64,000 bases of DNA from Chlorobiota bacterium (GTDB lineage Bacteria; Bacteroidota; Ignavibacteria; OLB7), in assembly GCA_028287785.1 (NCBI GenBank), contig JAQBOZ010000007.1, positions 271,393-335,392 of the forward strand. Direction: 5' to 3'. Both the position numbers and the translations under genes were made by a program. Positions 2,033 to 64,000 of this stretch are shown here, one piece after another; the first letter of the stretch is position 1; each line of letters starts with the position of its first letter. Under the pieces are notes generated by a model, which worked only from the letters and a program-made list of their open reading frames with translations, searched no databases and was not told the DNA's origin.

Positions 2033-3367
2033 TCAAATCAGGCGACGTGCCTTCAGCTCGAGATACTTGTTGATCGTGTTGACGGTAAGGCCGCTTGGCG
2101 GCGTGAGGATGGAATGAATCCCGTAGCGCTGAAGCTCCTTGACGATCTGCCGTTTCTCGAAGGCAAATTTTTCGGCGATCGTCTTCAGGTAGATCTCCTC
2201 CGTGTTCGTGGCCGGGGTCTCCAGCAACGTCCGCAGCTCGGTGTTCTCGAAGAAGACCACCACCAGCAGATGATCGCGGGCGATCTTCCGGAAGTAGGGA
2301 AGATCGCGCTGAAGCGATGTCAGCGTCTCGAAATTGGTGTAGAGGAAGAGAAGGCTCCGCCCTTTGATCCGCTGCCGGATGTTGGCGTAGAGCAGCTCGT
2401 AGCTGGACTCCAGGAAGTTCGTCTGCTGATTGTAGAGCACCTCCAGAATCTGCTGCATCTGCGCCCGGCGGCGCTCGGCCGGGATCACGTTCCCCATCTT
2501 TTCGGCAAATGTGATAAGCCCGGCGCGGTCGTTCTTCAGCAGAGCGATGTTGGAGATGACAAGGCTGGTGTTGATGGCGTAGTCCAGAAGGCTCATCCCC
2601 TCGAACGGCATCTTCATCACCCGCCCCTTGTCGATCAGGCTGTAGACCGGCTGCGACCGCTCATCCTGGTACTGGTTCACCATGAAGGACATCTTCCGCG
2701 CGGTTGCCCGCCAGTTGATCGTCCGGTAATCATCGCCGCGGACATACTCGCGGATCTGATCGAACTCCATCGTCTGCCCGATCCGCCTGATCTTCTTGAT
2801 CCCGGCCTCGTTCAATCGGTTGGAGACGGCCAGCAGTTCGTAGCGGCGCATCTGGATGTAGCTTGGATAGACCGGCACCATCTGGTTCTGCGAGAACCTG
2901 TAGCGCCGCCGCGCCATGCCGATCGGCCCGGCCACAAAGACATTGACCGCCCCGAAGTGATATTCCCCCCGCTCGGTCGGGCGAAGCGAATACGAGAGGA
3001 TCTTCCGCCCCCCCGGCGGAACCACAAGGTCGAAGTTGTTGTCCCGCACCTGAAACTGAAACGGAAGCTCATCGACCACCGAGATCCGGGCCGGAAAGGC
3101 GTAGCCGCTCTCCACATGCACGCGGATCTCGTTGTCATCGCCGTTCGAGAATCGCTCCGGGGCCTCCCGGCTTGCCCGAAGCCCGCGGCCACGGTAGAGG
3201 AGGAGCAGATCCACCACCACCAGCGCAACCACCACCACCACGCTGAGCTTCGCGAAGAAGAAGAGCCCCGGCACGATATAGCCCACCACGAAGAGGAGCA
3301 CCACTCCGCCGAGCGCGAGAAAGAAGCGTTTGTCGAGATAGAAACTTCGGAAGAACGTCATGAGCAT
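2033..3367 (-). CDS. DUF58 family protein (MoxR-associated, vWA-like)
   Basis: N-terminal double TM, then the conserved DUF58 core; it lies immediately downstream of MoxR. The start is chosen at the MLMTFF Met (3367) because the longer ORF (start 3463) overlaps the moxR stop and reads through a palindromic REP-like element at 3380-3400; 3463 remains a possible alternative. Confidence 0.7.
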   Translation of the reverse strand: MLMTFFRSFYLDKRFFLALGGVVLLFVVGYIVPGLFFFAKLSVVVVVALVVVDLLLLYRGRGLRASREAPERFSNGDDNEIRVHVESGYAFPARISVVDELPFQFQVRDNNFDLVVPPGGRKILSYSLRPTERGEYHFGAVNVFVAGPIGMARRRYRFSQNQMVPVYPSYIQMRRYELLAVSNRLNEAGIKKIRRIGQTMEFDQIREYVRGDDYRTINWRATARKMSFMVNQYQDERSQPVYSLIDKGRVMKMPFEGMSLLDYAINTSLVISNIALLKNDRAGLITFAEKMGNVIPAERRRAQMQQILEVLYNQQTNFLESSYELLYANIRQRIKGRSLLFLYTNFETLTSLQRDLPYFRKIARDHLLVVVFFENTELRTLLETPATNTEEIYLKTIAEKFAFEKRQIVKELQRYGIHSILTPPSGLTVNTINKYLELKARRLI

Positions 3368-3434
3368 GCGTCGTGTGTCGGGGGACGTTTCAAACGTGCC
3401 GGAACAATCGTTTAAAGACGGCCGGGGATAAACT

Positions 3435-7393: not shown

Positions 7394-8430
7394 CGTTCGA
7401 TATGCGATAGAGGTGACGAGGGTAGATCACGAAGTAGCCGATAACGAACACGAGCGACGCGGAGATGATCGTCAGGCTGGCCCAGATCGGCATCTCCGTG
7501 TAGCGCGTGATAAATGATTCCAGAAAACCGGCGGCGATAAAGACCGGTATCAGCCCCACGATCAGCTTCACCCCACGCACCGCGCCGCGCCGGAAGGACT
7601 CCCTGCGTGAGTAGGTTTTCGGGAAGAGGATGCTGTTTCCCATCACCAGCCCGGCCCCGCCGGCGATGACGATCGCGGAGATCTCCAGCGTCCCGTGAAT
7701 CCAGATCACCAGCGCCGACTGCGCCAGCAGCCCCCGCTCGTAGAAGAAGTACTGGAACACGCCCAGCATCACGCCGTTCTTGAACAGCTCGTACGCGGTG
7801 CCGAACGAGAGGAGAATCCCCTTGACGAACACCATGAACGAGACGAAGATGTTGTTGATGGGGATATACGCGAACATCGTCCCCTCCCCGCTGTGCTTGT
7901 ACACCCCCATGGGGTCGCCCTTGGCGATATTCTCCAGCGTCATGTTGACATAACTATCGCCGAGGATCAACCTGACGAAGTCGCTGTCGTTGGCTGATGA
8001 GAGGGCGCCGATCACGACCGAGATGGCGAAGATCACCAGCGCGTAGAGCATCTCCCGCTGCGACTGGAATGCGGCCAGCGGAACCTCCTCCTTCCAGAAG
8101 GTGATAAACCGGCTGCGCCGTTCCTTCCTGTTGCGATAGATCGCCTGGTGGACCTTCATGGTCAGGCCGTTCAGGTAGAGCGTGGTGTTGCTTTTCGGAT
8201 AGAATGTGCGGGCGTAGGAGAGGTCATCGGTAAGCTGCACGAACAGGTCGGCGAGCTGATCGGGGTTGGCCCGGTCCCGCTCCGCCAGCAGCGTCTCGAA
8301 CTCCTTCCACCGATCGGCATTTTTCCGGAGGAACGCTGCCTCTCTCATACGATTGAACGTCTGGTTGTATCCGTCGGTAATGATGTTCGCGCGCCGGGAG
8401 AAGGAATTCCGCTGGATGGGTCGGGTCATT
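7371..8430 (-). CDS. SpoIIM-like (DUF95) membrane protein
   Basis: Start taken at MTRPIQ (ATG on reverse strand at 8428-8430). It has a soluble N-terminal helical domain and then ~6 TM helices. The 613-aa ORF in the track is an upstream over-extension through Arg/Asp/Glu-rich nonsense. Confidence 0.6.
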
Positions 8431-16100: not shown

Positions 16101-16140
16101 AGGATCTTCAGGACCCGCCATCCAACAGCACATCGACGAT

Positions 16141-16452
16141 TCGGTAGTGACTCAGGTTGAATCCGGCCTTCCATCTGCTGAACAATCATCGGGCGGCGAT
16201 CCCTCCTTCTCTCTTCAAGCTCCAGAGGAGCGCGCCGATTGTAGCAACGATAGTTCCATCTCCCGCTCAAGCTCCATCGGAGCGTACCATCCCCGCATCC
16301 GTGCCGAACGGTACGCTCCGATGGAGCTTGAGATCATCGAAGACGTGGCATCGCTACAACCGGTACGCCCCGATGGGGCTGGAAGGAGAGATGCGGAATG
16401 CCCTCGATGAGCCCGAACAGCATGAGCCTTGTCCCAAACTGAGTCACTACCG
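16141..16452. mobile_element. MITE-like nested-palindrome element, family A, copy 1
   Basis: 19-bp terminal inverted repeats TCGGTAGTGACTCAGGTTG / CAAACTGAGTCACTACCGA, internal perfect 23-bp inverted repeat CTCAAGCTCCATCGGAGCGTACC with 21-nt loop, nested TTGTAGCAAC/GTTGCTACAA repeats. Homologous copies at 32508-32813 and 63277-63906. Confidence 0.6.
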
Positions 16453-16591
16453 ACGGTTCCGTGCGATGACATCGATGGGGGAAGGCATCCCTCCGTCGAA
16501 GACAGTCCCGGCTTCCACGGGGAGGCGCGCGGGAAATTTCCGGAGAGCACGGTCGTGGCGCGGCCCACGGATCTGCCGGGCATATCGCATA

Positions 16592-16632
16592 AAAAAAGGC
16601 GCCGAACAGTAACGCTGTTCGGCGCCTTACGT
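16592..16632 (-). terminator. rho-independent terminator of tRNA-Val
   Basis: On the reverse strand GGCGCCGAACAG-cgttac-CTGTTCGGCGCC is followed by TTTTTTT. Confidence 0.7.
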
Positions 16633-16644
16633 GTATGCTCTACG

Positions 16645-16718
16645 TGGGGTTAGTAGGATTCGAACCTACGACCTCATCCATGTCAAGGATGCGCGCTAAC
16701 CAACTGTGCCATAACCCC
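16645..16718 (-). tRNA. tRNA-Val(GAC): tRNA-Val (anticodon GAC)
   Basis: 74-nt cloverleaf folded by hand: acceptor GGGGTTA/TAACCCC, anticodon stem CATCC/GGATG with loop TTGACAT, T-arm GTAGG-TTCGAAT-CCTAC, discriminator A, no encoded CCA. Confidence 0.85.
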
Positions 16719-19422: not shown

Positions 19423-19492
19423 AAGCCGGAGCGCGAAGATAACCGCTTGCCGGAGATTCCACCGCCGGATGCCGACGAAAAATGCTCATATG

Positions 19493-19668
19493 TCGGGGAA
19501 CGTTTGAAACGTCCCCTCATGCATGAAGCGTAAGGGGACGTTTCAAACGTCCCCCGACGATCGCTAGAACCGGACGCCCACGGTCATGAAGAGAATCGGT
19601 AAGGGGACGTTTCAAACGTCCCCCGACGATCGCTAGAACCGGACGCCCGCGGTCATGAAGAGAATCGG
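19493..19668. repeat. tandem array: degenerate unit + 2 x 69-bp units, each carrying the palindrome GGGGACGTTTCAAACGTCCCC
   Basis: Units 19531-19599 and 19600-19668 differ at one position. The last 36 nt of each unit equal the last 11 codons plus TAG stop of the upstream outer-membrane-protein gene. Confidence 0.8.
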
Positions 19669-30958: not shown

Positions 30959-32380
30959 TCACCGCGCCAGCACCACGAACTCCGTCCTCCGGTTCTTCTG
31001 GCGACCCTCATCCGTCTCGTTGGTGGCGACCGGAAGGGAGAAGCCGAACCCTCTGGAGCGGACGCGGTCCTGGGGAATGCCCAGCGCGACCAGCGCGTCC
31101 CGGACGGCGGCGGCGCGGGCCTCGGAGAGCTTCTGGTTGTACTCCTCGGTCCCCTTTGAATCGGTATGCCCCCGCACCTCGATCTTCAGCCTGGGATGAT
31201 CCTTCATCGCCGACGCCAGCGCCGCAATCGACTCCTGCGATTCCGGGCGGAGGGTGGACATGTTGTAGTCGAAGTAGATCTTATCCAGCTTCACCGGGAC
31301 ATCGGAGGCGATATCGCCGGTGAGCGTGTTATAGGTGGCCGATGCCGCCACCTGCCTGGAGGAGTTCGGCGGGGTAAGCGTGAGCCGGGCGATATGCCTG
31401 CCGGCGACGTTCGGCGGCCTGTAGGTGACCAGATAATAGTTCCTGAGGCTCCGATAGATATCCTCGAAGGCGCTCTTCAGCTCGTCGTTCGTATACGTCT
31501 GATAGAACCGGCCGCCGGTGTAGGTGGAGATATCGGAGAGGACATCGCGGTTCACCGCGCCGAAGGCGATCGTGAAGATCGGGATGTTGTTGTCGCGGCA
31601 GAACTTGTACAGCTCGGAGGCGGGAATGGTGCTGGCGTTGTCCTCGCCATCGGTCAGCAGAACCACGGCGCGGGGATGATCGGCCGGGGATGATGCAACC
31701 TGATCGGCCCCGAGCTTGGCCGCCTGATAGATGGCGCTGTAGCTGCCGTATCCCTTCAGCCCCGTGCCGTTGAAGAGGGCCAGAAGATCGCTCTGCGAGC
31801 TGGTTGCCCCCAGCACGAGCTTCGGCGCGCGGTCGAACTTCACCACGGAGATCCGGTCCTGCGCCCGCTTCAGCCTGATAAACGCCGATGCCGCGTTCTC
31901 CACGCCGTTGATGTTGTTTCCCATCGTCCCGGAATAATCGAGCGCCAGGGAAAGCTCGTACGGTATCGCATCCTGATCGCTGAACTCCCGCACCGTGAAC
32001 TGATCGATCTTCCCGACCTTTCCATCATCGCCGATCTGCTCGGTCAGCCCGCTCCAGATCTTCCGGTAATCATCGTTCCCCTTGTAATACGGCGGGGCCA
32101 GATTGGTGACGATCTGCCCGCTGCTGTCGTAAACCCGCACATACAGGCTCACCGAATCGGGATAGGTCTCCGATCTGACCTTCCAGACATCGACGATCAT
32201 CTTTCCGGGATCGATCTGCTCGTACGATCTGGTGCCGACCATGTAGATCGGCTGCCTGTAGCCGGACGGCGCCGTCGGCTCGATCAGCGGAAGGATTGAT
32301 TTATCGAACGATCTGCAGCCGGCCCACAGAAGCGCGCCAAGGAGAAGAAACCGGATATCGGAGAGAGAACGTTGATTCAT
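30959..32380 (-). CDS. vWA domain + OmpA C-terminal domain lipoprotein
   Basis: Lipobox LLWAGC, vWA MIDAS (DYSGTM...), C-terminal OmpA peptidoglycan-binding motif (TDSKGTEEYNQKLSEARAAAVRDAL). Paralogue of the 45245-46759 gene. Confidence 0.75.
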   Translation of the reverse strand: MNQRSLSDIRFLLLGALLWAGCRSFDKSILPLIEPTAPSGYRQPIYMVGTRSYEQIDPGKMIVDVWKVRSETYPDSVSLYVRVYDSSGQIVTNLAPPYYKGNDDYRKIWSGLTEQIGDDGKVGKIDQFTVREFSDQDAIPYELSLALDYSGTMGNNINGVENAASAFIRLKRAQDRISVVKFDRAPKLVLGATSSQSDLLALFNGTGLKGYGSYSAIYQAAKLGADQVASSPADHPRAVVLLTDGEDNASTIPASELYKFCRDNNIPIFTIAFGAVNRDVLSDISTYTGGRFYQTYTNDELKSAFEDIYRSLRNYYLVTYRPPNVAGRHIARLTLTPPNSSRQVAASATYNTLTGDIASDVPVKLDKIYFDYNMSTLRPESQESIAALASAMKDHPRLKIEVRGHTDSKGTEEYNQKLSEARAAAVRDALVALGIPQDRVRSRGFGFSLPVATNETDEGRQKNRRTEFVVLAR

Positions 32381-32507: not shown

Positions 32508-32813
32508 AGTTACTTCCTGACTCAGCCTGAATCAGGCTCTGGTCTGCGCCGCGATCATCCGGCAATATCTCTTCATCGTTCTTCAAGCTCCGTGGGAGCG
32601 CGCCGGTTGTAGCAACCGATGCTCCCGTTCCCCCTCAAGCTCCATCGGAGCGGACCATCCCCGCATCCATGCCGAATGGTCCGCTCCGATGGAGCCTGAC
32701 ATCATGAAAGACGTGACGTTGCTACAACCAGCCCGCCCCGATGGGGCTGTCAAGACGGAGGCCTTACATAATGCCGTGTTTCGTGCCTCTCATCTCAAAT
32801 TGAGCCACTACCC
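32508..32813. mobile_element. MITE-like element family A, copy 2 (left terminal repeat degenerate)
   Basis: Shares the internal CTCAAGCTCCATCGGAGCGGACC hairpin and loop with copy 1; right end CAAATTGAGCCACTACC. Confidence 0.45.
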
Positions 32814-43246: not shown

Positions 43247-43408
43247 ACGCTGCGGATGACCTTCTTCAGCGTATTCCAGAGACGCAGACCCTTCAAGGAC
43301 GATCAGGTGCAAGGCGGCCGAGCCTGAGCGAGTGAGGCGTCCCCCCGGACGCCGCAATGAGCCAACGGTGAAGGCCAACGCCGCAGATGACATCCTTCAA
43401 CAGTCTGC
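43247..43408 (-). mobile_element. MITE-like element family B, copy 1 (far end degenerate, 14-nt insertion)
   Basis: Reverse complement aligns with 51652-51786 (shared GCAGACTGTTGAAGGAyGwCATCTGCGGCGTTGGCCTTCACCGTT...). It abuts the TAG stop of mgtE. Confidence 0.5.
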
Positions 43409-44787
43409 TATAGGAGGGTCCCCCGAAGCACAAGCACCGCGACGGTGAAATAGATGATCAGCCCGGTCACATCCACCAGCGTGGCAACAAACGGCGCTGA
43501 TGATGTGGCCGGATCGGCGCCGAACCGCTTCAGGATGAATGGGAGCATCGATCCGGCAAGCGTTCCCCAGAGGACGATGCCGATAAGGGAAAGGCCCACC
43601 GTAAGCCCCACCAGCGCCCAGTGCGGCCCGTAGATCTGCGAGAACATGCTCCAGACCGCGATCCGCAGAAAGCCGATTGTCCCGAGAATCAGCCCCAGTA
43701 TCAGCCCGGAGAAAAGCTCGCGCCGCATCACCAGCCACCAGTCGCGCAACTTCACCTCCCCAAGCGCCAGGGCCCTGATGATCAGCGTGGCCGCCTGCGA
43801 GCCGGAGTTTCCGCCGCTCGATATGATCAGCGGCACAAAGAGCGCAAGCACCACCGCGCGGGCGATCTGCCCCTCGAAGAACCCCATCGCCGTGGCGGTG
43901 AGCATCTCCCCGAGAAAGAGGATGACAAGCCACGAGGCCCGCTTGCGAACCATCCGAAGGAGCGGAGTGCTCACGTACGGCTCATCCAGCGCCTCCAGGC
44001 CGCCGAACTTCTGGATGTCCTCCGTCGCCTCCTCCTCCGCCACGTCCAGCATGTCATCCACGGTAACGATGCCAAGCAGCCGGCCGCGCGCGTCGATCAC
44101 CGGAAGCACCGTCCGGTCATATTTCCGGAAGACATCGATCGCCGACTCCTGATCCTCGGTGGCACGAAGCGCCAGGAACTGGTTGTCCATCAGATCGGCC
44201 ACGCCGGTATGGAACTCCGCCAGAAGGAACTTTCTGATATGCACATCATCCACCAGGCGGTTGTTCGCGTCCACCACGTAGATCACATCAAGCGTCTCGC
44301 TGTTACGGCCATGCGTCCTGATATGATCCAGCACCCGCCGCACCGTCCAATCCTCCAGCACCGCGATATAATCCGGCGTCATCAGACGGCCCACGCTGTT
44401 CTCGGGAAAATCCAGAAGCGTCCGCGCCACCTCCCGCTCCTCGGTGGAGAGGAGGTTCATCATCTCGCCGGCGGTTTCTTCCGATACCTCCTCCAGCAGC
44501 GCTGTCCGGTCATCCGGCGACATCACGTTGAGAAGCGCCGATGCCTTCTCCCTGGTCATCCCTTCAAGCAGCCATGCCTGATCGGACGGATCGAGATACT
44601 CAAACGTTTCGGCGGCCAGATCCCCCTGAATCGCGCTGAACGCCTGCGGCCGCTCATCCTCGGGAAGGCTGGTGAGCAGCCCCGCGATATCGGCCGGAAG
44701 CCAGTCGCTGAAGACCTCGCTCAGTGTCTCAAGGTCGTCCGCTGCGATAAGATCTCTGATCTCGGGCTGGAGAAGTTTTTCGATCAT
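43408..44787 (-). CDS. mgtE: magnesium transporter MgtE
   Basis: N-terminal MgtE_N, tandem CBS, C-terminal 5-TM MgtE domain (GGNSGSQAATLIIRALA). Confidence 0.9.
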   Translation of the reverse strand: MIEKLLQPEIRDLIAADDLETLSEVFSDWLPADIAGLLTSLPEDERPQAFSAIQGDLAAETFEYLDPSDQAWLLEGMTREKASALLNVMSPDDRTALLEEVSEETAGEMMNLLSTEEREVARTLLDFPENSVGRLMTPDYIAVLEDWTVRRVLDHIRTHGRNSETLDVIYVVDANNRLVDDVHIRKFLLAEFHTGVADLMDNQFLALRATEDQESAIDVFRKYDRTVLPVIDARGRLLGIVTVDDMLDVAEEEATEDIQKFGGLEALDEPYVSTPLLRMVRKRASWLVILFLGEMLTATAMGFFEGQIARAVVLALFVPLIISSGGNSGSQAATLIIRALALGEVKLRDWWLVMRRELFSGLILGLILGTIGFLRIAVWSMFSQIYGPHWALVGLTVGLSLIGIVLWGTLAGSMLPFILKRFGADPATSSAPFVATLVDVTGLIIYFTVAVLVLRGTLL

Positions 44788-45244: not shown

Positions 45245-46759
45245 ATGACGAGATCCGTACAGCATGCGCTTCTTCTCTTCGGCACCATCTTTCTGTGGCT
45301 GTCGTTGACAGGTTGCCCGCAGAACCTGGTGAAGATGGCCGACGAGATTCTGCCGCCGAAGGACTACAAGCCGATCTACATGACATCGGCCGTTCCGTTC
45401 GATTCACTGATCCGGCAATATAGAACCGTCACCGGCCCCGTCACCGCATGGAAAAGCCAGCGGGTGGCCGATTCCACCGGCGCGATCGCCTGGCAGCGCC
45501 AGGGCCCGCTCACGATGGATATCCGCAAGGTGGACGACAGCCGGTATCCGGATGAGGTGGAGCTGCGCGCGTTCATCTACGATACCACCGGCCGTTTCGT
45601 GATGGGGCTTGCCCCGCCCTACTCCACCGGTAACTGGCGCGCCCGCTGGCCCCGGCTGGTGGACTCCTGCTCCGGGGCCGCCGTGCCGATCGACAGCTTT
45701 ACCGTCACCGAGGTCCGGCAGGATCGCCGCGAGCCGTACGCGATATCCTTCGTCCTTGACCAGTCCGGATCGATGGGGGACGAGAAGGTCCGCAAGCTCC
45801 GCACTGCGTTGAGCCGCACCCTCAGGATCATCAAGAAAGGTGATATGATCGCCACGGTGAAGTTCGGCAGCAAGTGCCTTGTGGATGTCCCGCTCACCGA
45901 TGACAGCGTCCGGTTCCGCAGGGAGTTTCAGGTGGAGAATCTGCAACCGCCGGGAGGGGGAGGAACGGCGCTGTACGACGCGGGCATCGTCGGGATCGAG
46001 CAGGTGGCGAACGCGCCGGTCGGCTACAAGCGCGCCATGATCCTCTTCACCGATGGCTTCAACGGCCAGTCCGATGCCACGCTCGCGGACGTGCAGCGGG
46101 CGGCGCGGGAGAAGAACGTCACCATCTACACCGTCGCCTACGGGCAGGCGGACGAGGAGGTGATGCGGACGATGGCGGCCTATACCGGCGGCAGGATGTA
46201 CAGGATCTACTCCAACAGGGAGTTCCCCTACGTCTTCGCCGATATCTATCGCGGCCTGAACAATTACTACAGGATCACCTACCGCCCGCCGCTCTGCAAA
46301 GGGGTCCATACCGCCACCGCCGCGGTCTCCATCCCGGAGCTTGGCTACAGCCCCCTCCTGGCCGACGGGCGCTACGACCGCTCCCTCTTCACGCCGTACG
46401 ATCCCGTCGGCTCCATCGCGATGGTCAGCATCGAGTTCGATTACGACAAGGCCACCATCCGCTCGGAATCCGCGCCCAGGGTGACGGAGGTCGCGGAGGC
46501 ACTCCGCGCCAACCCGGCGATGGAGCTGGAGATACGCGGGCATACCGACGATCGCGGCGGCGATGAGTACAACATGAAGCTCTCCGAGGATCGCGCGCGC
46601 GCCGTTGCCGACGCGCTGGTGACGCTCGGAATCGATCGGAAGCGGATGACCGTCGTCGGCTTCGGAAAGACGCGGCCGCTGGTCCCGAACGATTCCGAGG
46701 AGAACCGGAAGAAGAACAGGAGGACGGAGTTCGTGATCACCAGCCAGGGGGAGAAATGA
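45245..46759 (+). CDS. vWA domain + OmpA C-terminal domain lipoprotein (paralogue of 30959-32380)
   Basis: Lipobox LSLTGC, vWA MIDAS DQSGSM, C-terminal ...HTDDRGGDEYNMKLSEDRARAVADAL...NRRTEF. Confidence 0.75.
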   Translation: MTRSVQHALLLFGTIFLWLSLTGCPQNLVKMADEILPPKDYKPIYMTSAVPFDSLIRQYRTVTGPVTAWKSQRVADSTGAIAWQRQGPLTMDIRKVDDSRYPDEVELRAFIYDTTGRFVMGLAPPYSTGNWRARWPRLVDSCSGAAVPIDSFTVTEVRQDRREPYAISFVLDQSGSMGDEKVRKLRTALSRTLRIIKKGDMIATVKFGSKCLVDVPLTDDSVRFRREFQVENLQPPGGGGTALYDAGIVGIEQVANAPVGYKRAMILFTDGFNGQSDATLADVQRAAREKNVTIYTVAYGQADEEVMRTMAAYTGGRMYRIYSNREFPYVFADIYRGLNNYYRITYRPPLCKGVHTATAAVSIPELGYSPLLADGRYDRSLFTPYDPVGSIAMVSIEFDYDKATIRSESAPRVTEVAEALRANPAMELEIRGHTDDRGGDEYNMKLSEDRARAVADALVTLGIDRKRMTVVGFGKTRPLVPNDSEENRKKNRRTEFVITSQGEK

Positions 46760-50196: not shown

Positions 50197-51651
50197 ATGG
50201 TTCGTGTTCGCTTTGCTCCGTCGCCCACAGGCATGCTCCACGTTGGCAGCCTCCGTTCCGGCCTCTACAACTACCTCTTCGCGCGCCATCTCGGCGGCAC
50301 CTGCATCCTCCGCATCGAGGATACGGATCAGACGCGGTACGTGGAAGGGGCGGAACAGAACATCTTCGAGATGTTCCGGTGGACCGGCATCGAGTTCGAT
50401 GAGGGGCCGCACGTGGGAGGGCCGCACGGGCCGTACCGTCAGTCCGAGCGCACCGATATCTACAGGGTCCACGCGCAGATGCTGCTGGATCGCGGCACCG
50501 CCTATTACGCGTTCGATACCGCCGAGGAGCTGGACCGGATGCGCGAGCGACAGAAGGCGGCCGGCGTCGCCCCGAAGTATGACCGCACCTCGATGCGGAA
50601 CCAGTTCACGCTCGGCGAGGAGGAGACGCGACGCCTTATCGATTCGGGGACGCCCTGGACCATCCGGCTCTTTGTGCCGCTGACCGGCGAGACCCGTACC
50701 AGCGACCTTGTCCGCGGCGAGAGCGTCTTCCCGAACAAGACCATCGATGACCAGATCCTCCTGAAATCCGATGGCTACCCGACCTATCATCTCGCCAACA
50801 TCGTGGATGATCATCTGATGGAGATCACCCATGTGATCCGGGGGGAAGAGTGGCTTCCATCGCTTCCCAAGCATGTTATCCTCTACGATGCGTTCGGCTG
50901 GGAGAAGCCGCAGTTCGCCCATCTCCCGCTCCTGCTGGGGCCAACCCGCAAGAAGCTCTCGAAGCGTGATGGCGATGTCTCCGTGGCGGAATATCTCCAG
51001 AAGGGCTATCTCCCGGAGGCGCTCGTCAACTTCGTGGCGCTGCTTGGGTGGAACCCGACCGCGGATCGCGAGATCTTCACGGTGGAGGAGATGATCGCGA
51101 TGTTCGAGCTGGAGAAGGTGAACAAGGCGGGGGCGATCTTCGATCTTGAAAAGCTCAACTGGATGAACGGCATGTACCTCCGCCAGATGCCGATCGAGCG
51201 CCTGGCCGGCGATGTGCTGCCGATACTCGCCAGAGCGGGATTCGGGAATGTGGAGATGATCTATGCCGAGGCGGTGGTCGATCTGATCAAGGAGAGGATC
51301 ACCACGCTGAACGATATCCCGACCTTCGCCGACTACATGTTCGGGCCGATCCGGTGCATCGATTTCGCCTACGCGCAGAAGCACTGGAAGGCCGGGACAC
51401 AGGAGCAGGTCGCGGAGATGGCGGGCCGGTTTGCCAGGCTGAACCCCGCCGAGTGGACCGTGTCGATGATCGAGGGGGTGGTGCGCGGCTACGCCGAGGA
51501 GCTTGGCCTCTCCGCCGGAAAGCTGATCCATCCTCTCCGCCTGGCGATCACCGGCAGGCAGGTGGGCGCCGGGATGTTCGAGACGATGGTGGTGCTGGGA
51601 CAGGGGACATCGATCACGCGGCTGCGGGAGTTTACCGGGCCGGCGGTATAG
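50197..51651 (+). CDS. gltX: glutamate--tRNA ligase
   Basis: HIGH region (PSPTGMLHVG), KMSKS-like KLSKR, anticodon-binding C-terminus; 484 aa. Confidence 0.9.
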   Translation: MVRVRFAPSPTGMLHVGSLRSGLYNYLFARHLGGTCILRIEDTDQTRYVEGAEQNIFEMFRWTGIEFDEGPHVGGPHGPYRQSERTDIYRVHAQMLLDRGTAYYAFDTAEELDRMRERQKAAGVAPKYDRTSMRNQFTLGEEETRRLIDSGTPWTIRLFVPLTGETRTSDLVRGESVFPNKTIDDQILLKSDGYPTYHLANIVDDHLMEITHVIRGEEWLPSLPKHVILYDAFGWEKPQFAHLPLLLGPTRKKLSKRDGDVSVAEYLQKGYLPEALVNFVALLGWNPTADREIFTVEEMIAMFELEKVNKAGAIFDLEKLNWMNGMYLRQMPIERLAGDVLPILARAGFGNVEMIYAEAVVDLIKERITTLNDIPTFADYMFGPIRCIDFAYAQKHWKAGTQEQVAEMAGRFARLNPAEWTVSMIEGVVRGYAEELGLSAGKLIHPLRLAITGRQVGAGMFETMVVLGQGTSITRLREFTGPAV

Positions 51652-51786
51652 CAGACTGTTGAAGGACGACATCTGCGGCGTTGGCCTTCACCGTTCGCTC
51701 ACTGCGGCGTCCGTGAGCTCAGGTTCGGCCGCCTTGCATCTGATCGCCTTGAAGGGTCTGAGCGCTGAAAGCACTTCAACAGTCTG
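51652..51786 (+). mobile_element. MITE-like element family B, copy 2
   Basis: Perfect 13-bp terminal inverted repeats CAGACTGTTGAAG...CTTCAACAGTCTG. It begins on the base after the gltX TAG stop and is followed by a CGGCGGCG/CGCCGCCG hairpin. Confidence 0.6.
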
Positions 51787-54987: not shown

Positions 54988-57948
54988 ATGCACGTTGTTC
55001 GCTACCTGGCCCTCCTCTGGCTCCTCCCCATCGCGGCCCTGGCCCAGGGCTCGAACATGGTTTCCAATCCCGGCTTTATCGGCACCTATGGAACCGGCAT
55101 CGGCCCCGATAATATCCCCCCGTGGCTCCCCGCCTGCGGCACCCCTGACGCGCGCGCCGGCAACGGCTGTTCCGATACCGGCTATATCGCGATGTGGGGG
55201 AACAAGTTCGTCGGGGAGGCGATCAAGGAAAAGCTGTTCATCCGCATCAGGAAGGACAGCCTCTACACCTGCTCCCTCTGCATGCGCGCCAGCCCCGATG
55301 TCGGCAGGTACTTCCGCGCCCGCGTCGTGGCGTTCAGCACCACTCCCCGGTTCGACAATTTCCACTGGGATATTCAGGAGCCGCAGGTTGCCCTGATCGG
55401 ATCGGCCGGCACCGCCAGCCTGAACTGGCGCACCCTCACATTTCCACCGTGGAAGGCGCCGGCTGACTACGACAGCATCGCGATCAACGTCGAGAACGAT
55501 TCCGCCGACTACACCAACCCGGCCACCGTATCGTGGGGGAATATCGACGGGGTGAATCTGGAGAAGGTGTCGAAGTGCATCCTGTCGGTGGACTCGTTCA
55601 CCGTCCGCTGCAACGGCTTCGATCAGCAGGGACACCGGCTCTACCTCTACTCGGTAAACGCGAGAAGCGATATCGATGGCTTTATCGTCGCATCCACGCC
55701 GAACGGACAGGCGACCATCTCCCAGAACACGATCCCCGCGGCCACGGAGGTGAACATCACCGGCACGATCACCGGCACCAGCGGGACAAATGATCCGCTC
55801 TGCCTCTACGTTTCCCTTATCACCGGAAACGGCCTCCTCTGCCGCGATTCCATCTGCATCCCCTCGCCACTGCCGGCGCCCCTCAACAGCCGCGACACGA
55901 TCTGCACCGGCGGAGCCATCACGCTCGATGCGCCCGACGGGATCGCCTGGCGCTGGAGGCCGGCCACGGGACTGAGCTGCGCGGACTGCCAGCACCCGAC
56001 GGCATCGCCCGATGTCTCGACCAGGTATCTGGTGGAAACCACCGGCCGGCAGGGATGCGTCTCGGTCGATACCGCCGATCTCCAGGTGGCCCCGCTGCCG
56101 GTCATCACCGCCGGAACCAAGGTGACGATATGCCTGGGAGGAAGCACGGAGTTGTTGGTATCCGGCGGGGCAGCCTATCGCTGGAGCCCGGCGACGGGAT
56201 TGAGCTGCACGACGTGCCCCAACCCCATCGCCTCACCGACCGAGCCGACGGTGTACACGGTAACGGTGACAAGCGCCGCCGGCTGCTCCGCGAACGCCTC
56301 GATAACCGTGTTGATCGATTCCGCGACGGCGATGATCCGATCGATTTCGAGGGATACCACCATCTGCGCCGGAGAGGGCGCGCACCTCATCGCGAGCGGC
56401 GCCGATCGCTATCAGTGGTCCCCCGCCACCGGGTTGGGCTGCGTCGACTGCGCCGATCCGATCGCGTCGCCGGCCGTCACGACCCGATATACCTGCACGT
56501 TCATCAGCGTCGCCGGCTGCTCCGCGCGGGATTCCGTGCTGGTGACCGTGGCGCCACCGCCGGCCGCGGACGCCGGGGCCGATACAACCATCTGCGCCGG
56601 AGGAGAAGCGGCGCTGAGCGGGTCCGGCGGCACCGGATACAACTGGTCCCCCGCCGATGCAATCAGTTGCACCGACTGTAGAAATCCGGTGGCCCGCCCC
56701 CTGATCACAACCACCTATACACTCCGCGTGACAAACGCGGCAGGCTGCTCCGCGACCGACTCCGTTACCGTGCATGTCCTCCCCCTCCCCTCCGCCGACG
56801 CCGGCCCCGATGTCGCGGCCTGCCCCGGAGAGAGCATCACCCTCTCGGCATCGGGCGGAACAACGTATGCCTGGTCCCCCGCCGAAGGGCTCAGCTGCGC
56901 CGACTGTCAAAGCCCGGTCGCCACGCCGTTGCGGACGACGGTCTATCATCTGACGGCAATCAACGCCGCCGGCTGTGCCGCAACCGACAGTGTTACGGTA
57001 AACCTCCGCGCGGCTCCGACGGTGACCGCTTCCGGCGATACCGATATCTGCCCGGCCCGCCCGGCCCGGCTCCATGCGTCGGGCGCGTCGGTCTACCGCT
57101 GGAGACCGGCCACCGCCCTTTCCTGTACGGACTGCCCCGATCCCGTGGCAACGCCGCTGGTCACCACCACCTATGTGGTTTCGGGGACCGACGCTCATGG
57201 CTGCACCGGGGAGGACACGGTGATCATCCGCGTCGGCGATGGAACGCGAACCATCACGGCGCATATCGATCGCGACCACCACCTTCTGCCGGGAAGCATC
57301 ATCGCGATTCCCATCATCCTGGATTCCGCGGCGGACGGCGCGGCAACGCTGGAGATCGCGCTGGGTTACGAACGACGCTTCCTCCGCCTCAAACGGATTT
57401 CGACCGATGGAACGCTCCTCGACGGATGGGCCATCACCACCCTGACCGATTCGCTCGGCGCCGTCCGCGTCAGGCTGGATGCCCCACCGGGACGCACGCT
57501 GCGGGGACGGGGAACGCTGGCGACGATCGATCTGGCGGGCTATCTGGCCGATACGGTGGAATCGGAACTGCCGTTCAGCATCACCCTCCCGGCCGGCTCG
57601 TGCGATCGCATCACCGCGCTGCCGGGGCATATCAGGATCGATTCGATCTGCGGGCTGAACCTCCGGCTGATCCGTGTGACCGTCGGCAACTACTCCCTCG
57701 CGGGAAATCGCCCCAACCCCTTCAACCCATCCACCGAGATATCCTTCTCGCTCGGCCTTGACGGGCCCACAACGCTGGCGATCTACGACGCCGCCGGCAA
57801 TGCCATCACCACCCTCATCGACACCTGGCTCCGGCCCGGAAGCTACACCGTCGCGTGGGATGCCTCCGGGCAGCCCTCCGGCATCTACTACTACAGGATG
57901 ACCTCCGGCGCCTGGAGCGGCCAGGGAAGGATGCTGCTTGTGAAATAA
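54988..57948 (+). CDS. large secreted protein with 8 tandem ~47-aa Cys-containing Ig-like repeats and T9SS C-terminal sorting domain
   Basis: Signal peptide; repeat consensus ICxGxxxxLxASGGxxYxWSPAxGLSCxDCxxPxAxPxxTTxYxVTxxxxxGCxxxDSVxVxV spanning ~55880-57240; C-terminal ...GNRPNPFNPSTEISFSL...GIYYYRMTSGAWSGQGRMLLVK. Confidence 0.75.
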   Translation: MHVVRYLALLWLLPIAALAQGSNMVSNPGFIGTYGTGIGPDNIPPWLPACGTPDARAGNGCSDTGYIAMWGNKFVGEAIKEKLFIRIRKDSLYTCSLCMRASPDVGRYFRARVVAFSTTPRFDNFHWDIQEPQVALIGSAGTASLNWRTLTFPPWKAPADYDSIAINVENDSADYTNPATVSWGNIDGVNLEKVSKCILSVDSFTVRCNGFDQQGHRLYLYSVNARSDIDGFIVASTPNGQATISQNTIPAATEVNITGTITGTSGTNDPLCLYVSLITGNGLLCRDSICIPSPLPAPLNSRDTICTGGAITLDAPDGIAWRWRPATGLSCADCQHPTASPDVSTRYLVETTGRQGCVSVDTADLQVAPLPVITAGTKVTICLGGSTELLVSGGAAYRWSPATGLSCTTCPNPIASPTEPTVYTVTVTSAAGCSANASITVLIDSATAMIRSISRDTTICAGEGAHLIASGADRYQWSPATGLGCVDCADPIASPAVTTRYTCTFISVAGCSARDSVLVTVAPPPAADAGADTTICAGGEAALSGSGGTGYNWSPADAISCTDCRNPVARPLITTTYTLRVTNAAGCSATDSVTVHVLPLPSADAGPDVAACPGESITLSASGGTTYAWSPAEGLSCADCQSPVATPLRTTVYHLTAINAAGCAATDSVTVNLRAAPTVTASGDTDICPARPARLHASGASVYRWRPATALSCTDCPDPVATPLVTTTYVVSGTDAHGCTGEDTVIIRVGDGTRTITAHIDRDHHLLPGSIIAIPIILDSAADGAATLEIALGYERRFLRLKRISTDGTLLDGWAITTLTDSLGAVRVRLDAPPGRTLRGRGTLATIDLAGYLADTVESELPFSITLPAGSCDRITALPGHIRIDSICGLNLRLIRVTVGNYSLAGNRPNPFNPSTEISFSLGLDGPTTLAIYDAAGNAITTLIDTWLRPGSYTVAWDASGQPSGIYYYRMTSGAWSGQGRMLLVK

Positions 57949-58141
57949 TCTCTTCAGTCTCGTGATGAATTGCAGTGATCGTGTGTCCTGATCCCCATGG
58001 GCCGCGTTTCCCGCGCGTCCCACGGCGGACCGGCCCGTGCGCCGTAACGTTCCGCCCGTGGAATCATTCCTGGCTATGACCGGCGAACGCCATCGGTCAG
58101 GAACGGCTCCCCGCCGCGGCACTCTCAATTCATCCGAGGCA

Positions 58142-61100
58142 ATGCTCATGAGGCTGATTTCATCTGATCCGGCAGGCGGCGGGAAGAACCTGCTTCCGCT
58201 CACCATCGCGCTCATCATCGCCATCATTGCGCTGGTTCCGGGCGTTCTCCGCGCGCAGGGGGGGACATCATCGGACGCTCCGCCGAGCGGGGAAACCGTG
58301 GAACGCGCGCTCTCCTCGCTGCCGGTCGTCTTCCGCAGGAACGCGGGGCAGTGGGAAGATCCGATTCTCTACCAGGGACGCTCCGCGGGGGCCAATGTCT
58401 ACTTTATGCGGGACGGGCTCAGCTTCGGCTATACGCGTGAGATAGAGGGAGAGGACGAGGAGGGAGAGGGTGATGAGGGGAGCCACGGCGATGAGTCGGA
58501 TGCATCGGAATTCCTGGTCTGGAACCTCACGTTCGCCGGGATGAATCCCAATGCGCGCGTCGTCTCCGAAGGGGAACACGAGGGGAACACGAACTATCTC
58601 CGCGGCGAGGATTTCAGCAGACACCTGACCCATGTGCCGGAGTATTCGCGCCTCTGGTACAGGGATATCTACCCCCATATCGATCTCCGCTACTACGGCA
58701 CCGGAGCGGCGTTGAAGTACGATTATATCGTGGCGCCGGAGGGGAATATCGCCGATATCAGGATGGCGTGCAGCGGCATCGAGAAGCTGGCGATCAACGC
58801 AAAGGGACAGCTCGAAATCACCAACGCCTGGGGAACCGTGGCCGAGGAAGTGCCCTTCACCTATCAGGTGATCAACGGCGCCAGACGCGAAGTGGCGTCG
58901 CGCTATCGGATGGTGAACGATACCACGTTCGGCTTTGCGATCACCGGCGGCTACGATCATGCGGAGCCGATCGTGATCGACCCGATCATGCTGGCGTGGT
59001 CCACCTTCGTCGGCGGGACGGGGGATGAACAGATGGGATATATCCGCGATATCGCCGTGGATAAGAAGGGGAATGTCTACGGCACCGGCTGGTATACCGC
59101 CGGGTTCCCGACAACGCCCGGCGTCTACGGCAAAGGCGCGTTCGGCCCCGACTACAATTTCTTCCACGACTACTACAACGATGTCTTCGTCTTCAAGCTG
59201 GACGCCACAGGGACAAAGCTGATCTACTCCACCTATATCGGCGGCTCATCGAACGAGCTGGGGCTCAGGCTCAGGGTGAACGATGCGGGAGAAGCGTTTG
59301 TTACCGGGCAGACCTTCACATCCGGGGGCGGGTTCGGGCGGAACAACTTTCCGATCACCGCCAACGCGCTGTCGAAAACGTATGGCGGCAACTTCGATCT
59401 CTTCGCCCTCCGCCTGAGCGCCGACGGGACAAAGCTGATCTACTCCACCTACATCGGCGGTGATGATTACGAGGACGTTGGGGGGATCGCGATCGATCAG
59501 CAGGGATCGCTCTATATCTGCGGCTCCACATCCAGCAGCAATTTTCCGACGACGGCCGGCGCCATCCGCCGCACCCCCTACGGCAACTCGGATATCTTCG
59601 TCTCCAAACTCGCCGACGATGGAAGCAGGATGATCTTCTCCACCTATATCGGTCAGAAGGGGAATGACAGCGCGTACGATATGGCGCTCGACCGCCAGGG
59701 AAATATCTACGTTTCAGGGTGGACAAGCTCCACCAATTTCCCCGTCACCGCCGGAGCCTACGCAACCCGCTACGGCGGCGCGGGGGCGGGAGTTGTGCTG
59801 AAGCTGGCCCCCGATGGGGGACGCATTATCTACGCAACCTTTATCCAGTCCGCCAACGACGACAAGAACGTGATCGCGGTTGACCGCGACGGGAGCGCCG
59901 TTGTTGCCGGGACCACCAACGACCGGAACTTCCCCACCACCGCGAAGGCGTATTCGCGAACGCTGAAGGGGGCCTCCGATGCGTTCGTGGTAAAACTGGA
60001 TAGCCTTGGGGCGACGGCGCGCTACTCCACGCTCCTTGGCGGAAGCGGCAATGAACAGCCCGAGGGAATCGCCCTTGCCGCCGGCGGAGAGGTCTTTATC
60101 TCCGGAAGATTGATCTTCCCGAACGCCCCCTCCACCCGGAATTTCAAGGCCGATTTCCCCGTGACCAGATGCGCGCTGGAACCGGATTACCGCTCGCAGA
60201 TGGATTTCAGTTTGCTGTGGGACGGCTTCGTCAGCCGCCTGAGCGCCGACGGGGCGCGGCTTGAATACTCCACCTATCTCGGCGGCAAGAACAATGATTA
60301 CTACGCCAGAGTCATATTCGATACGGTCGGCGGCAGGCAGGATCTCTATATCTCGATAACAACCCATTCCCCCGATTTCGTCACCACGCCGGGATCGTTT
60401 CAGCCGGTGAAGCTGAACACTGCCCGCGATCAGCCGGTGGTGATGAAGCTTAGTCCCATCTACCGTCCCGCGTTCACGCACCGGGCCGATAACTGCGGCG
60501 GGGATCGATTCTTCGATTCCACCATCGCCGACTGCATCTGGACCGACAGCACATGGACGCCGGGAAGCTGGCGATGGGATTTCGGCGATGGATCGACATC
60601 GACCGATCGCAACCCCATCCATTCCTACACGCGTCCCGGCGACTACGCGGTAACGCTGGTGACCGGAGCGCCGTACGACTCGATAACGACCGTCGTTCAT
60701 ATCGCCCCGGCGGGCTCCATCGCACCCGCCGCCGCCGCCCATATCGCGACCGACAACCGGGCGATGCCTGGGGATTCCGTGACGATTCCTGTGGTGCTCG
60801 ATACCCCCGCCGATACGCTCGGCTGCCGCCGGATAGCCTTCTCGATCCTCTATGACAGCAACATGATGAGCCTGGCAAATGCCACCCCCACCAGGCTCCC
60901 CTCGATGCTCAAGGGGACGCTTGTCGAGGGATGGACCCCGATGGTAACGGCCGATCGCCCCGGCTTCTTCTCCCTCACGCTGGATGCTCCGCTCTCGATT
61001 CAGCCGCTGAAGGGGAAGGGAAATATTCTCGAGCTGCGGTTTTCCACATTTATCAAGGGGGCGGGCGACGCGCAGACCGATTCGATCTGGCGATCGCCGC

Positions 61101-61477
61101 TGCCGTTCGATCTTACGCTCTACACGGCGCAGTGCGCGCCGGTTGCCACCGTTCCGGGGGAACTCCGATTCGAGCTCTGCGGCATGCGGGAACGCCTGAT
61201 CATCGCCACGATGTCGAAGTATGCTCTGAGGCCCAATGCCCCCAACCCGGTCCACTCCGCCACGGATATCGAGTTCTCGCTCGGCCTGGATGGCTATACA
61301 ACGCTGGCGGTCTACAATGCCCGCGGGGAAAAAGTGGAGACGCTGGTGGATGGATACCTGGAGCCCGGAAGCTACGCGGCCCACTGGGATGGAACCCGTC
61401 ATCCCTCCGGCGTCTATCACTACCGGCTCTCCTCCGGCACCTGGAGCGCGGAGGGGAGGATGCTGCTGACGAAATGA
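58142..61477 (+). CDS. secreted SBBP beta-propeller-repeat protein with PKD domain and T9SS C-terminal sorting domain
   Basis: Repeated YSTYIGGxxxExGxxIAxDxxGNxYVxGxTxSxNFPTTxGA (SBBP) units x~9, PKD-like WDFGDGSTSTDRNPIHSYTRPGDYAVTLV, C-terminal ...RPNAPNPVHSATDIEFSL...GVYHYRLSSGTWSAEGRMLLTK. Start at MLMRLISS (TM/signal anchor follows). Confidence 0.75.
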   Translation: MLMRLISSDPAGGGKNLLPLTIALIIAIIALVPGVLRAQGGTSSDAPPSGETVERALSSLPVVFRRNAGQWEDPILYQGRSAGANVYFMRDGLSFGYTREIEGEDEEGEGDEGSHGDESDASEFLVWNLTFAGMNPNARVVSEGEHEGNTNYLRGEDFSRHLTHVPEYSRLWYRDIYPHIDLRYYGTGAALKYDYIVAPEGNIADIRMACSGIEKLAINAKGQLEITNAWGTVAEEVPFTYQVINGARREVASRYRMVNDTTFGFAITGGYDHAEPIVIDPIMLAWSTFVGGTGDEQMGYIRDIAVDKKGNVYGTGWYTAGFPTTPGVYGKGAFGPDYNFFHDYYNDVFVFKLDATGTKLIYSTYIGGSSNELGLRLRVNDAGEAFVTGQTFTSGGGFGRNNFPITANALSKTYGGNFDLFALRLSADGTKLIYSTYIGGDDYEDVGGIAIDQQGSLYICGSTSSSNFPTTAGAIRRTPYGNSDIFVSKLADDGSRMIFSTYIGQKGNDSAYDMALDRQGNIYVSGWTSSTNFPVTAGAYATRYGGAGAGVVLKLAPDGGRIIYATFIQSANDDKNVIAVDRDGSAVVAGTTNDRNFPTTAKAYSRTLKGASDAFVVKLDSLGATARYSTLLGGSGNEQPEGIALAAGGEVFISGRLIFPNAPSTRNFKADFPVTRCALEPDYRSQMDFSLLWDGFVSRLSADGARLEYSTYLGGKNNDYYARVIFDTVGGRQDLYISITTHSPDFVTTPGSFQPVKLNTARDQPVVMKLSPIYRPAFTHRADNCGGDRFFDSTIADCIWTDSTWTPGSWRWDFGDGSTSTDRNPIHSYTRPGDYAVTLVTGAPYDSITTVVHIAPAGSIAPAAAAHIATDNRAMPGDSVTIPVVLDTPADTLGCRRIAFSILYDSNMMSLANATPTRLPSMLKGTLVEGWTPMVTADRPGFFSLTLDAPLSIQPLKGKGNILELRFSTFIKGAGDAQTDSIWRSPLPFDLTLYTAQCAPVATVPGELRFELCGMRERLIIATMSKYALRPNAPNPVHSATDIEFSLGLDGYTTLAVYNARGEKVETLVDGYLEPGSYAAHWDGTRHPSGVYHYRLSSGTWSAEGRMLLTK

Positions 61478-61509
61478 TGATCGCGCCACGATGCAATGCA
61501 CTGTTGTAA

Positions 61510-61530
61510 GGGGACGTTTTAAACGTCCCC
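61510..61530. repeat. palindrome GGGGACGTTTTAAACGTCCCC between convergent genes
   Basis: Same TAA-GGGGACGTTTyAAACGTCCCC-CGAC context as the copies at 19534 and 19603. Confidence 0.8.
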
Positions 61531-61540
61531 CGACAGGCCG

Positions 61541-63202: not shown

Positions 63203-63276
63203 GCCGATGCCCTTGCGATTTCCCGAAAGCCGGCAAGTTAGGGAGAAGGCGTGGTTCTGATAACGTGTTGGGGATC

Positions 63277-63589
63277 ATGGGTAGTGACTCAGGTTGGGAT
63301 ACGGTTCATGCTGTTCGGACTCATCGAGGGCATTCGGCATCTCTCCTTCCAGCCCCATCGGGGCGTACCGGTTGTAGCAATGCCATGTCTTCGATGATCT
63401 GAAGCTCCATCGGAGCGTACCATTTGGCACGGATGCGGGGATGGTACGCTCCGATGGAGCTTGAGCGGGAGATGGGAGCATTGTTGCTACAACCGGCGCG
63501 CTCCTACGGAGCTTGAAGAGTGAAGGAGGGATCGCCGCTCGATGATTGTTCAGCAGATGGAAGACTGGATTCAAACTGAGTCACTACCG
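63277..63589. mobile_element. MITE-like element family A, copy 3 (inverted relative to copy 1)
   Basis: GGTAGTGACTCAGGTTGGG...CAAACTGAGTCACTACCGG; internal AGCTCCATCGGAGCGTACC-loop-GGTACGCTCCGATGGAGCT; preceded by GATCATG. Confidence 0.6.
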
Positions 63590-63590
63590 G

Positions 63591-63906
63591 ATCATGAGAG
63601 TGACTCGGGTTGGGATGGGATTCATGATGCCCGGAATCATGGAGGCACCCGGCAGCCGTCTTCACAGCCCCAGCGGGGCGAGCCGGTTGTAGCAATGCCA
63701 TGTCTTTTGTGATGTCAAGCTCCGTAGGAGCGTACCATTCGGCACGGATGCGGGGATGGTTCGCTCCGATGGAGCTTGGGCAAACAACGGGAGCATCGTT
63801 ACTACAACCGGCGCGCTCCTACGGAGCTTGAAGAGCGATGAAGACTTCGCCGATGGAGGATCATTCAAGGGCTCCGAGGCTGGATTCACACTGAGGCACT
63901 GCCAGA
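63591..63906. mobile_element. MITE-like element family A, copy 4, in direct tandem with copy 3
   Basis: Starts ATCATGAGAGTGACTCGGGTTGGGATGG, same internal hairpin set, ends CACACTGAGGCACTGCCAGATCAT. Confidence 0.55.
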
Positions 63907-64000
63907 TCATCGCACAATTCCCTCTTCCCTTTGGAAGTTGTGGGGAGATAAGTTGAAATTGCCATTCATGCTCTTCTCGAAACAGACACGCCGTCGCTCG

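Follow-up and report, generated by a model that had tools for sequence, protein, structure and literature searches.

A palindrome-rich intergenic repeat with IS1-type ends in Kapaibacteria, probably a miniature inverted-repeat transposable element

The Correia elements of Neisseria, which duplicate a TA dinucleotide, and the enterobacterial repetitive intergenic consensus (ERIC) sequences are both of the miniature inverted-repeat transposable element (MITE) type. Another kind of intergenic repeat, comprising the repetitive extragenic palindromes (REPs), their hairpin-forming doublets (REPINs) and the bacterial interspersed mosaic elements (BIMEs), which go together with REP-associated tyrosine transposases (RAYTs), is built of nested inverted short palindromes, sometimes in tandem, in units of ~35–110 bp. 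Insertion sequences of the IS1 family, for their part, have ends that follow the pattern GGnnnTG and are flanked by duplications of 8–9 bp. In MITEAba12, which has a 9-bp duplication, similarity to the candidate parent insertion sequences is limited to the terminal repeats, and an IS1-family element with a GGTGGTG... repeat and 8-bp duplications has been described (PMC6382973). Here we analyse a repeat of ~310 bp that is present in four copies (c1 to c4) in 64,000 nucleotides of contig JAQBOZ010000007.1 (assembly GCA_028287785.1), hereafter the window, and which is very probably a MITE, i.e. a non-autonomous DNA transposon, mobilised in trans by a DDE transposase of the IS1 family.

Like MITEAba12, the Correia elements and ERIC, the repeat is short, non-coding, multi-copy and intergenic, has terminal repeats and a duplication of fixed length, and can form a hairpin, and as in MITEAba12 its similarity to candidate parents is limited to the terminal repeats. 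It differs from all three in its IS1-like parent and 8-bp duplication, in being about twice as long, and in an interior of four repeated 20-nt palindromic motifs that is conserved above the ends. Its terminal repeats begin GGTAGTG, which fits the IS1-family end pattern. The family is new, but of a well-known kind; no description of it came to light in Rfam, among the plasmids of the collection or in the literature that could be searched (queried with the terminal-repeat sequence and for Kapabacteria repeats).

Terminal repeats, target-site duplications and empty sites

A repeat finder applied to the window recovered four copies of ~300–310 bp together with their orientations, and the boundaries set from terminal-repeat matches refine those of a preliminary description of this DNA, which had also counted four. 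Two copies, c1 (16143–16451, forward strand) and c3 (63280–63588, reverse strand), are complete at 309 bp and their terminal repeats contain no mismatches at either end, whereas c2 (32518–32812, forward strand) and c4 (63596–63903, reverse strand) are diverged, the lengths of all four lying between 295 and 309 bp. The copies had been called near-identical, which holds for c1 and c3 (92% identity) and not for c2 and c4, the remaining values being 79% for c3/c4, 75% for c1/c4 and 72–73% for c2 against the others. A grouping of c2 and c4 as a single subfamily was considered and dropped, as these pairwise identities indicate that each diverged separately. Similarly, the terminal inverted repeats of 15–19 bp that had been ascribed to every copy are intact over 13–17 bp in c1 and c3 (GGTAGTGACTCAG..., no mismatches) and degenerate in c2 and c4. 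Homology of c2 to the element begins at ~32518 and the first 5 nt of its left terminal repeat are gone, in agreement with the degenerate left end reported earlier; its right terminal repeat is GGTAGTGGCTCAATTTG (2 mismatches), and the two repeats of c4 have 3 mismatches each. Each end of c1 and of c3 carries the string GGTAGTGACTCAG(G/T)TTG, of which c2 and c4 have degenerate forms and the rest of the window none. The 17-nt terminal repeat GGTAGTGACTCAGNTTG (up to 3 mismatches allowed) has seven occurrences in the window, every one of them at an element end, compared to an expectation of 0.18.

Both complete copies are flanked by 8-bp target-site duplications in identical register. At c3 the sequence GGATCATG is found on the left (63272–63279) and on the right (63589–63596) with 8/8 matches, the last base of the right-hand copy doubling as the first base of c4. 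At c1 the left copy is GACGATTC (16135–16142) and the right copy GACGGTTC (16452–16459), which agree at 7/8 positions and can be written GACG(A/G)TTC. The GATCAT-like target proposed earlier is just the 8-bp site of the c3/c4 locus, c1 having used a different one. Two kinds of parent that had been put forward do not agree with these flanks: an IS630/Tc1-mariner-type parent would be expected to duplicate TA, at odds with the 8-bp duplications GGATCATG and GACG(A/G)TTC, and an IS200/IS605-type parent, with its subterminal hairpins and Y1 transposase, would be expected to show neither terminal repeats nor a duplication, at odds with the presence of both.

Further signs of movement come from a sister genome. 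Relatives of the tricorn-type protease gene beside c1 are found in metagenome-assembled genomes (MAGs) of Candidatus Kapaibacteriota, the closest being GCA_039917235.1 (Ca. Kapaibacterium sp. cluster1_bin.331), whose nucleotide identity to the window is ~92% over the tricorn protease gene and ~95% in intergenic flanks. In this genome (locus L086) the genes for NFACT and a SpoIIE-type phosphatase are divergent and 131 nt apart, and the DNA between the same flanks reads ...GTGTTGA GGATCATC ACACAATTCC..., with the target 8-mer present once only. The equivalent site of the window reads GGATCATG-c3-GGATCATG-c4-AGATCATC, so that one target 8-mer has become three, the third of which, on the right flank of c4 (63904–63911), matches the GGATCATC of the sister locus at 7/8 positions. 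Both c3 and c4 are absent from the sister genome, and the three 8-mers are what would be left by two insertions, one after the other, into a single duplicated target. As c3 is near-identical to c1 and to the copy that encodes the annotated protein P0001 (see below) and c4 is diverged, c3 was probably the later arrival and landed at the edge of the older c4, creating the tandem. The consequence is a 630-bp double insertion between the divergent starts of two genes that are separated in the sister species by 131 nt. Copy c2 is likewise missing from the sister genome, in whose orthologous intergenic region (L089) the flanks align at ~95% up to ...TACTTCCTGA; beyond this point the sister has 58 nt with a GGGGACGTTTGAAACGTC palindrome, and the window has c2 minus its first 5 nt followed by 44 unrelated nt. 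The insertion polymorphism that the preliminary description had suggested looking for is thus seen in a close relative at two sites, highlighting recent transposition in an uncultured phylum, the Kapaibacteriota, with insertions that differ between sister species.

Autonomous relatives with IS1-type transposases

When IMG/VR contigs were scanned for the terminal repeat, 22 matches were returned, which is about chance level by rough estimate, and in one contig (L092) two inverted matches lie 3.4 kb apart. They bound a 3386-bp element (L092:1656–5041) with the terminal repeat GGTAGTGACTCAGTTTGAA, a perfect 20-nt repeat GGGTAGTGACTCAGTTTGAA and a flanking 8-bp duplication CAGTCGGG. Its 314-aa transposase matches Pfam DDE_Tnp_IS1 at 31.3 bits (cut-off 24.1), and homologues on RefSeq plasmids with 61–67% identity are annotated 'IS1 family transposase'. 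The best NCBIfam match is transpos_IS1 (E = 3.6e-20), at 72.8 bits below the equivalog cut-off of 100, and so the transposases of these relatives appear to form a distant branch of the IS1 family. Thirty-one related loci were fetched, from which 10 complete elements of 2.65–3.4 kb could be delimited, the autonomous relatives being L092/L116, L117, L118, L124, L126, L127, L131, L136 and L143. All 10 have GGTAGTG(A/T/C/G)... ends and eight have perfect 8-bp duplications, in the same register as those of c1 and c3.

The members of this branch, seen in L092 and loci L116–L146, are 2.65–3.4 kb long and carry additional genes, which in L092 encode a P63C-domain protein and an ABC substrate-binding protein, and their ends are highly conserved as GGTAGTG(A/T)CTCAGTTTGAA, with 8-bp duplications.

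The two ends of the short repeat are not equivalent when compared with these transposons. One of them, end A (GGTAGTGACTCAGGTTGGGATACGG), resembles the left end of L143 (GGTAGTGTCTCAGTTTGGGATTCG), and the other, end B (GGTAGTGACTCAGTTTGAATCCAGT), resembles the right, transposase-proximal ends of L136 and L143 (GGTAGTGTCTCAGTTTCAATCCAGT); the first 13 nt are identical and 21–23 of ~24 nt match the L143 and L136 ends, so that the similarity extends beyond the shared 13-mer. The element thus bears one left-type and one right-type end of an IS1-family transposon. In c1 the left end is the IRR-like (right inverted repeat) end B, GGTAGTGACTCAGGTTGAATCC, and the right end is the IRL-like (left inverted repeat) end A. 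The short repeat and the autonomous transposons therefore share their outermost sequence and the length of the duplication, the latter encoding an IS1-type DDE transposase, whereas the repeat is only ~310 bp long, has no transposase and has a palindromic interior unrelated to that of the 2.6–3.4-kb relatives. This links a MITE to a little-described branch of ~3-kb IS1-family elements with extra genes on virus-classified contigs.

A MITE is what the observations on ends and insertion sites describe, viz. a short element without a transposase gene, dispersed in several copies, with terminal repeats, a duplication of fixed length and presence/absence polymorphism, and with autonomous relatives that have the same ends. 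The preliminary description had offered the non-autonomous, MITE-like reading together with a structured RNA gene, and the first of these is the one that has gained support. By this mechanism an IS1-type transposase, encoded elsewhere in the genome or formerly present, would bind both ends in trans, cut the target with an 8-bp stagger and insert the element. The sub-lineages represented by c1/c3, c4 and c2 would all have been active after the split from the sister species, and the tandem would have arisen when c3 entered the target duplication bordering the older c4.

The palindromic interior and its possible functions

The interior of the element is dominated by inverted repeats. As described earlier, c1 contains a perfect 23-bp stem, CTCAAGCTCCATCGGAGCGTACC, around a 21-nt loop (central stem-loop 16266–16332, forward strand; arms 16266–16288 and 16310–16332), and the further nested repeats are also present, namely a TTGTAGCAAC/GTTGCTACAA pair and two degenerate copies of the stem motif, with the 21-nt loop at the apex. 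The stem motif GCTCCATCGGAGCG (up to 2 mismatches) has 15 occurrences in the window, all of them within the four copies, against 2.1 expected. Each element has four 20-nt motifs of the form AAGCTCC-NNN-GGAGCG-NACC, two per arm, each being a small palindrome in itself; in c1 both arms of the central stem contain the motif. The whole element can fold as one long hairpin, as had been proposed, with z-scores between about -10 and -12 in c1 and c3 and between -4.6 and -6.6 in c2 and c4; over all copies and strands the range is -4.6 to -11.5. A transcribed element would form a hairpin of ~150 bp.

This architecture invites comparison with REP, REPIN and BIME sequences, in which an inverted pair of REP-type palindromes is moved by a RAYT (HUH/Y1) transposase whose substrates are single-stranded hairpins. 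The four imperfect palindromes per element do form nested inverted pairs, the tetranucleotide GTA(C/G) adjoins the small hairpins, a solitary inverted pair is found in a further Kapaibacteria locus (L005, below), and the repeat shares with these systems its intergenic location and occasional tandem arrangement. However, the 8-bp duplications and the precise empty site point to the staggered cut of a DDE-type enzyme and not to HUH chemistry, IS1-family transposons have identical terminal repeats, a length of ~310 bp is unlike that of REP-type units, and Pfam scans of the window's open reading frames (ORFs) found no Y1_Tnp domain and no RAYT. We therefore regard a REPIN-like origin as highly improbable.

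Conservation is distributed unevenly along the element. Mean pairwise identity among the four copies is 85–96% in the motif blocks and the central stem-loop, the latter being the most conserved block of the family, compared to 75–81% in the terminal repeats (72–78% without the c1/c3 pair) and 59–67% in the outer arms (53–62% without that pair). The sister genome has neither c2 nor c4 although its flanks are ~95% identical, and the bulk of the 20–27% divergence of these two copies must therefore, to judge from these alignments, predate their insertion. This would mean that the core was retained in several sub-lineages of the family as their outer arms drifted. Beyond ~25 nt from each end, nhmmer found no similarity between the interior of the repeat and the interiors or subterminal regions of the 2.6–3.4-kb IS1-like relatives. 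A derivation of the core motif from the parent transposon was considered on account of a CCATCGGAGC...GCTCCGAATCGG arrangement beside the left end of L136; no other relative has it and nhmmer gave nothing, and it was set aside as coincidence.

Diverged relatives of the core have been found in other Kapaibacteria. A covariance model of the core, searched over ~640 kb of fetched loci, matched only L009 (strongly), L005 and L007 (two weak tandem units). The L009 relative (~193–428) has the same architecture as the element (E = 1.7e-26), with two-sided changes that keep the pairing at five central-stem positions and at two positions of the TTGTAG stem. IS1-type ends were looked for in L009 by eye; on the left ~9/13 positions match the consensus and on the right they do not, which is suggestive only. 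In L005 (8941–9016) a solitary central hairpin has the 20-nt motif and compensatory changes, and in L007 (13395–13887), from another Kapaibacteria MAG, two tandem units of ~247 nt stand directly 3' of the tricorn protease gene. The left halves of these units are 99% identical and the right halves diverged; both units form hairpins around a GCTCCC-TGC-GGGGAGC motif, and their similarity to the core is weak (E = 0.02). As a separate observation, about four tandem repeats of the 16-nt unit GAGAGTTAAGAAAGAA lie at L009:120–180, adjoining the relative there.

These findings raise the question of whether the ~170-nt core, comprising the four motifs, the TTGTAGCAA/TTGCTACAA pair and the conserved 21-nt apical loop, is an older, Kapaibacteria-specific hairpin module, in the form of a structured RNA or of a native palindrome with several protein-binding sites, that was captured between IS1-type ends and became mobile through them. 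Such a history is compatible with the MITE. It would account for a core that is better conserved than terminal repeats or outer arms in copies whose divergence preceded their insertion, for the lack of similarity to the interiors of IS1-like transposons, for the same architecture in L009 where IS1-type ends are missing, and for the solitary hairpin with compensatory changes in L005. When L009 is added to the alignment, nine double-change pairs are seen, six in the central stem, compared to 3.8 +/- 1.4 in shuffled alignments (0 of 500 reach nine) and 0–2 in slid controls. Among the window copies alone, however, covariation is not significant (5 double-change pairs against 4.3 in shuffles), and the signal gained with L009 is essentially one lineage contrast, which homogenisation of the palindrome arms or co-evolution of a repeated binding site would explain as readily as selection on an RNA. 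The sparseness of relatives elsewhere in Kapaibacteria also speaks against a native module, with one clear and three weak relatives in ~300 kb of other Kapaibacteria DNA against four copies in the 64 kb of the window. We consider capture of such a module unlikely, though clearly less so than a REPIN-like origin; were it true, the MITE would be spreading functional cargo and not junk.

The RNA version of this idea, raised in the preliminary description as structured RNA genes, finds no direct support. At the gathering score Rfam matched only two tRNAs in the window, a permissive search gave the element nothing other than generic microRNA-precursor hairpins far below threshold, and no known RNA family is assigned to it. 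No promoter-like or terminator-like consensus was found inside the copies, the promoter rules of the host phylum being not known. In each of the four copies one strand folds 19–24 kcal/mol better than the other, and there are 38 G-T mismatches to 20 A-C mismatches, which made that strand a candidate for the RNA; the offset is reproduced by shuffled sequences and the two strands have equal z-scores, and the difference was attributed to composition.

For the preferred reading, a MITE mobilised by an IS1-family transposase, the interior of ~260 bp would be a palindromic module that does not derive from the known parent transposons. It is most likely retained because it assists propagation in cis, which it might do by offering extra protein-binding sites or by folding the short element such that both ends meet. 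Several observations weigh against this reading and should be set beside it. The mobilising enzyme is inferred, since neither Pfam scans of ORFs nor tblastn detected an IS1-type transposase in the window, in accordance with the earlier report of none. The transposon relatives come from viral-classified contigs with a GC content of 0.32–0.64, and not from Kapaibacteria. No recognisable target-site duplication flanks c2, and that of c4 fits only with a 1-nt shift. Furthermore, the interior is better conserved than the ends, which a plain deletion-derivative MITE does not predict, and L009 shares the interior and lacks clear GGTAGTGACTCAG ends. An interior that is conserved above the ends, and common to end-less relatives in another genus, poses a puzzle about what short transposons need in cis.

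Coding potential, further copies and genomic setting

The possibility that the element encodes a small protein has also been considered, as an ORF of ~99 aa spans c3 and has a counterpart in c1. The frame is open throughout both of these copies, two such ORFs are annotated as proteins in the MAG, and the 23 differences between c1 and c3 (16157–16453 compared to 63278–63574) fall 4/5/14 on codon positions 1, 2 and 3. This mild third-position excess is probably due to chance, and the differing codons comprise 12 non-synonymous and 9 synonymous changes. In c2 the frame is interrupted and in c4 it is cut short, and in L009 the corresponding frame, read by eye, runs into a stop codon ahead of the central stem. 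The predicted sequence starts at a TTG codon and is rich in Pro, Ser and Ala. A search of 5.8 billion proteins with the translated c3 ORF returned only two matches, P0001 and P0002, both of them annotations from the window's own MAG, and a count by eye gives 7 differences between P0002 and c3 over 35 aligned residues. A genuine small protein is thus very hard to credit, and the ORFs 16157–16612 and 63275–63574 are most likely artefacts of the repeat, as was stated in the preliminary description; they and the 'hypothetical proteins' P0001 and P0002 represent read-through of it.

The same two annotations provide an estimate of copy number. The residues that flank the element-derived part differ in P0001 and P0002, which shows at least two copies beyond those of the window, so that the genome holds at least six. 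Perhaps not surprisingly for a repeat, which would be expected to interrupt assembly, the Logan contig L001 (run SRR13312994) ends 32 nt inside c3, an indication that the element breaks short-read assemblies. The family was not found outside this lineage by exact-pattern scans of public genome and metagenome collections: the central stem has no match in 185,579 species genomes, a scan of JGI metagenomes gave one chance match that lacks the element, scans of viral contigs with the stem motifs gave chance matches only, and blastn of the element against the plasmid collection found nothing.

All four copies are intergenic, as the gene neighbours mapped at each of them show in agreement with the earlier account. 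On one side c1 has the tricorn-type protease gene and on the other the terminator of tRNA-Val; the tRNA gene (16644–16718), which c1 had been said to flank, is indeed nearby, although it lies ~190 nt away with its terminator in between. Copy c2 is located between a HAD/deaminase gene and an OmpA/VWA gene. The c3/c4 pair stands ~75 nt upstream of the NFACT gene, and the repeat finder agrees that its members follow each other head to tail, in the orientation opposite to that of c1 and c2. The NFACT protein is 100% identical to JWQ98_749 of a deposited Chlorobi bacterium MAG, encoded on a contig of 492,993 bp.

The HAD/deaminase neighbour of c2 is a single gene of 394 aa in the window, and in the sister genome (L089:6865–8049) it is called as a protein of 353 aa and a separate ORF of 40 aa, the split probably being a frameshift, a premature stop or an assembly error. 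The OmpA/VWA gene on the other side (30959–32380, reverse strand) has a paralogue in the opposite orientation (45245–46759, forward strand), and the 3' parts of the two yield inverted repeats at 30974–31148 and 46561–46735.

A second, distinct repeat family is present at 43285–43412 and 51647–51780, in two inverted copies of ~130 nt that are ~8 kb apart and 94% complementary over 67 nt. Its sequence also opens a contig of the sister genome (L003:1–146), where it probably broke the assembly.

Two adjacent genes encode large secreted proteins, one (54988–57948) with an Ig_7 domain and the other (58037–61477) with DUF7948, SBBP beta-propeller and PKD domains. Their last ~240 nt are 73–76% identical (57706–57949 compared to 61235–61478), and this shared 3' part resembles a type-IX-secretion sorting tail.

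Short perfect palindromes of the form GGGGACGTTT(C/G)AAACGTCCCC, which resemble REP-type elements or bidirectional terminators, lie between genes at 3365–3410, 19480–19667 and 61494–61539, the second of these regions containing three in a row and including a 69-bp tandem duplication. In the sister genome one such palindrome (L089, ~8070–8100) is located exactly at the position that c2 occupies in the window.

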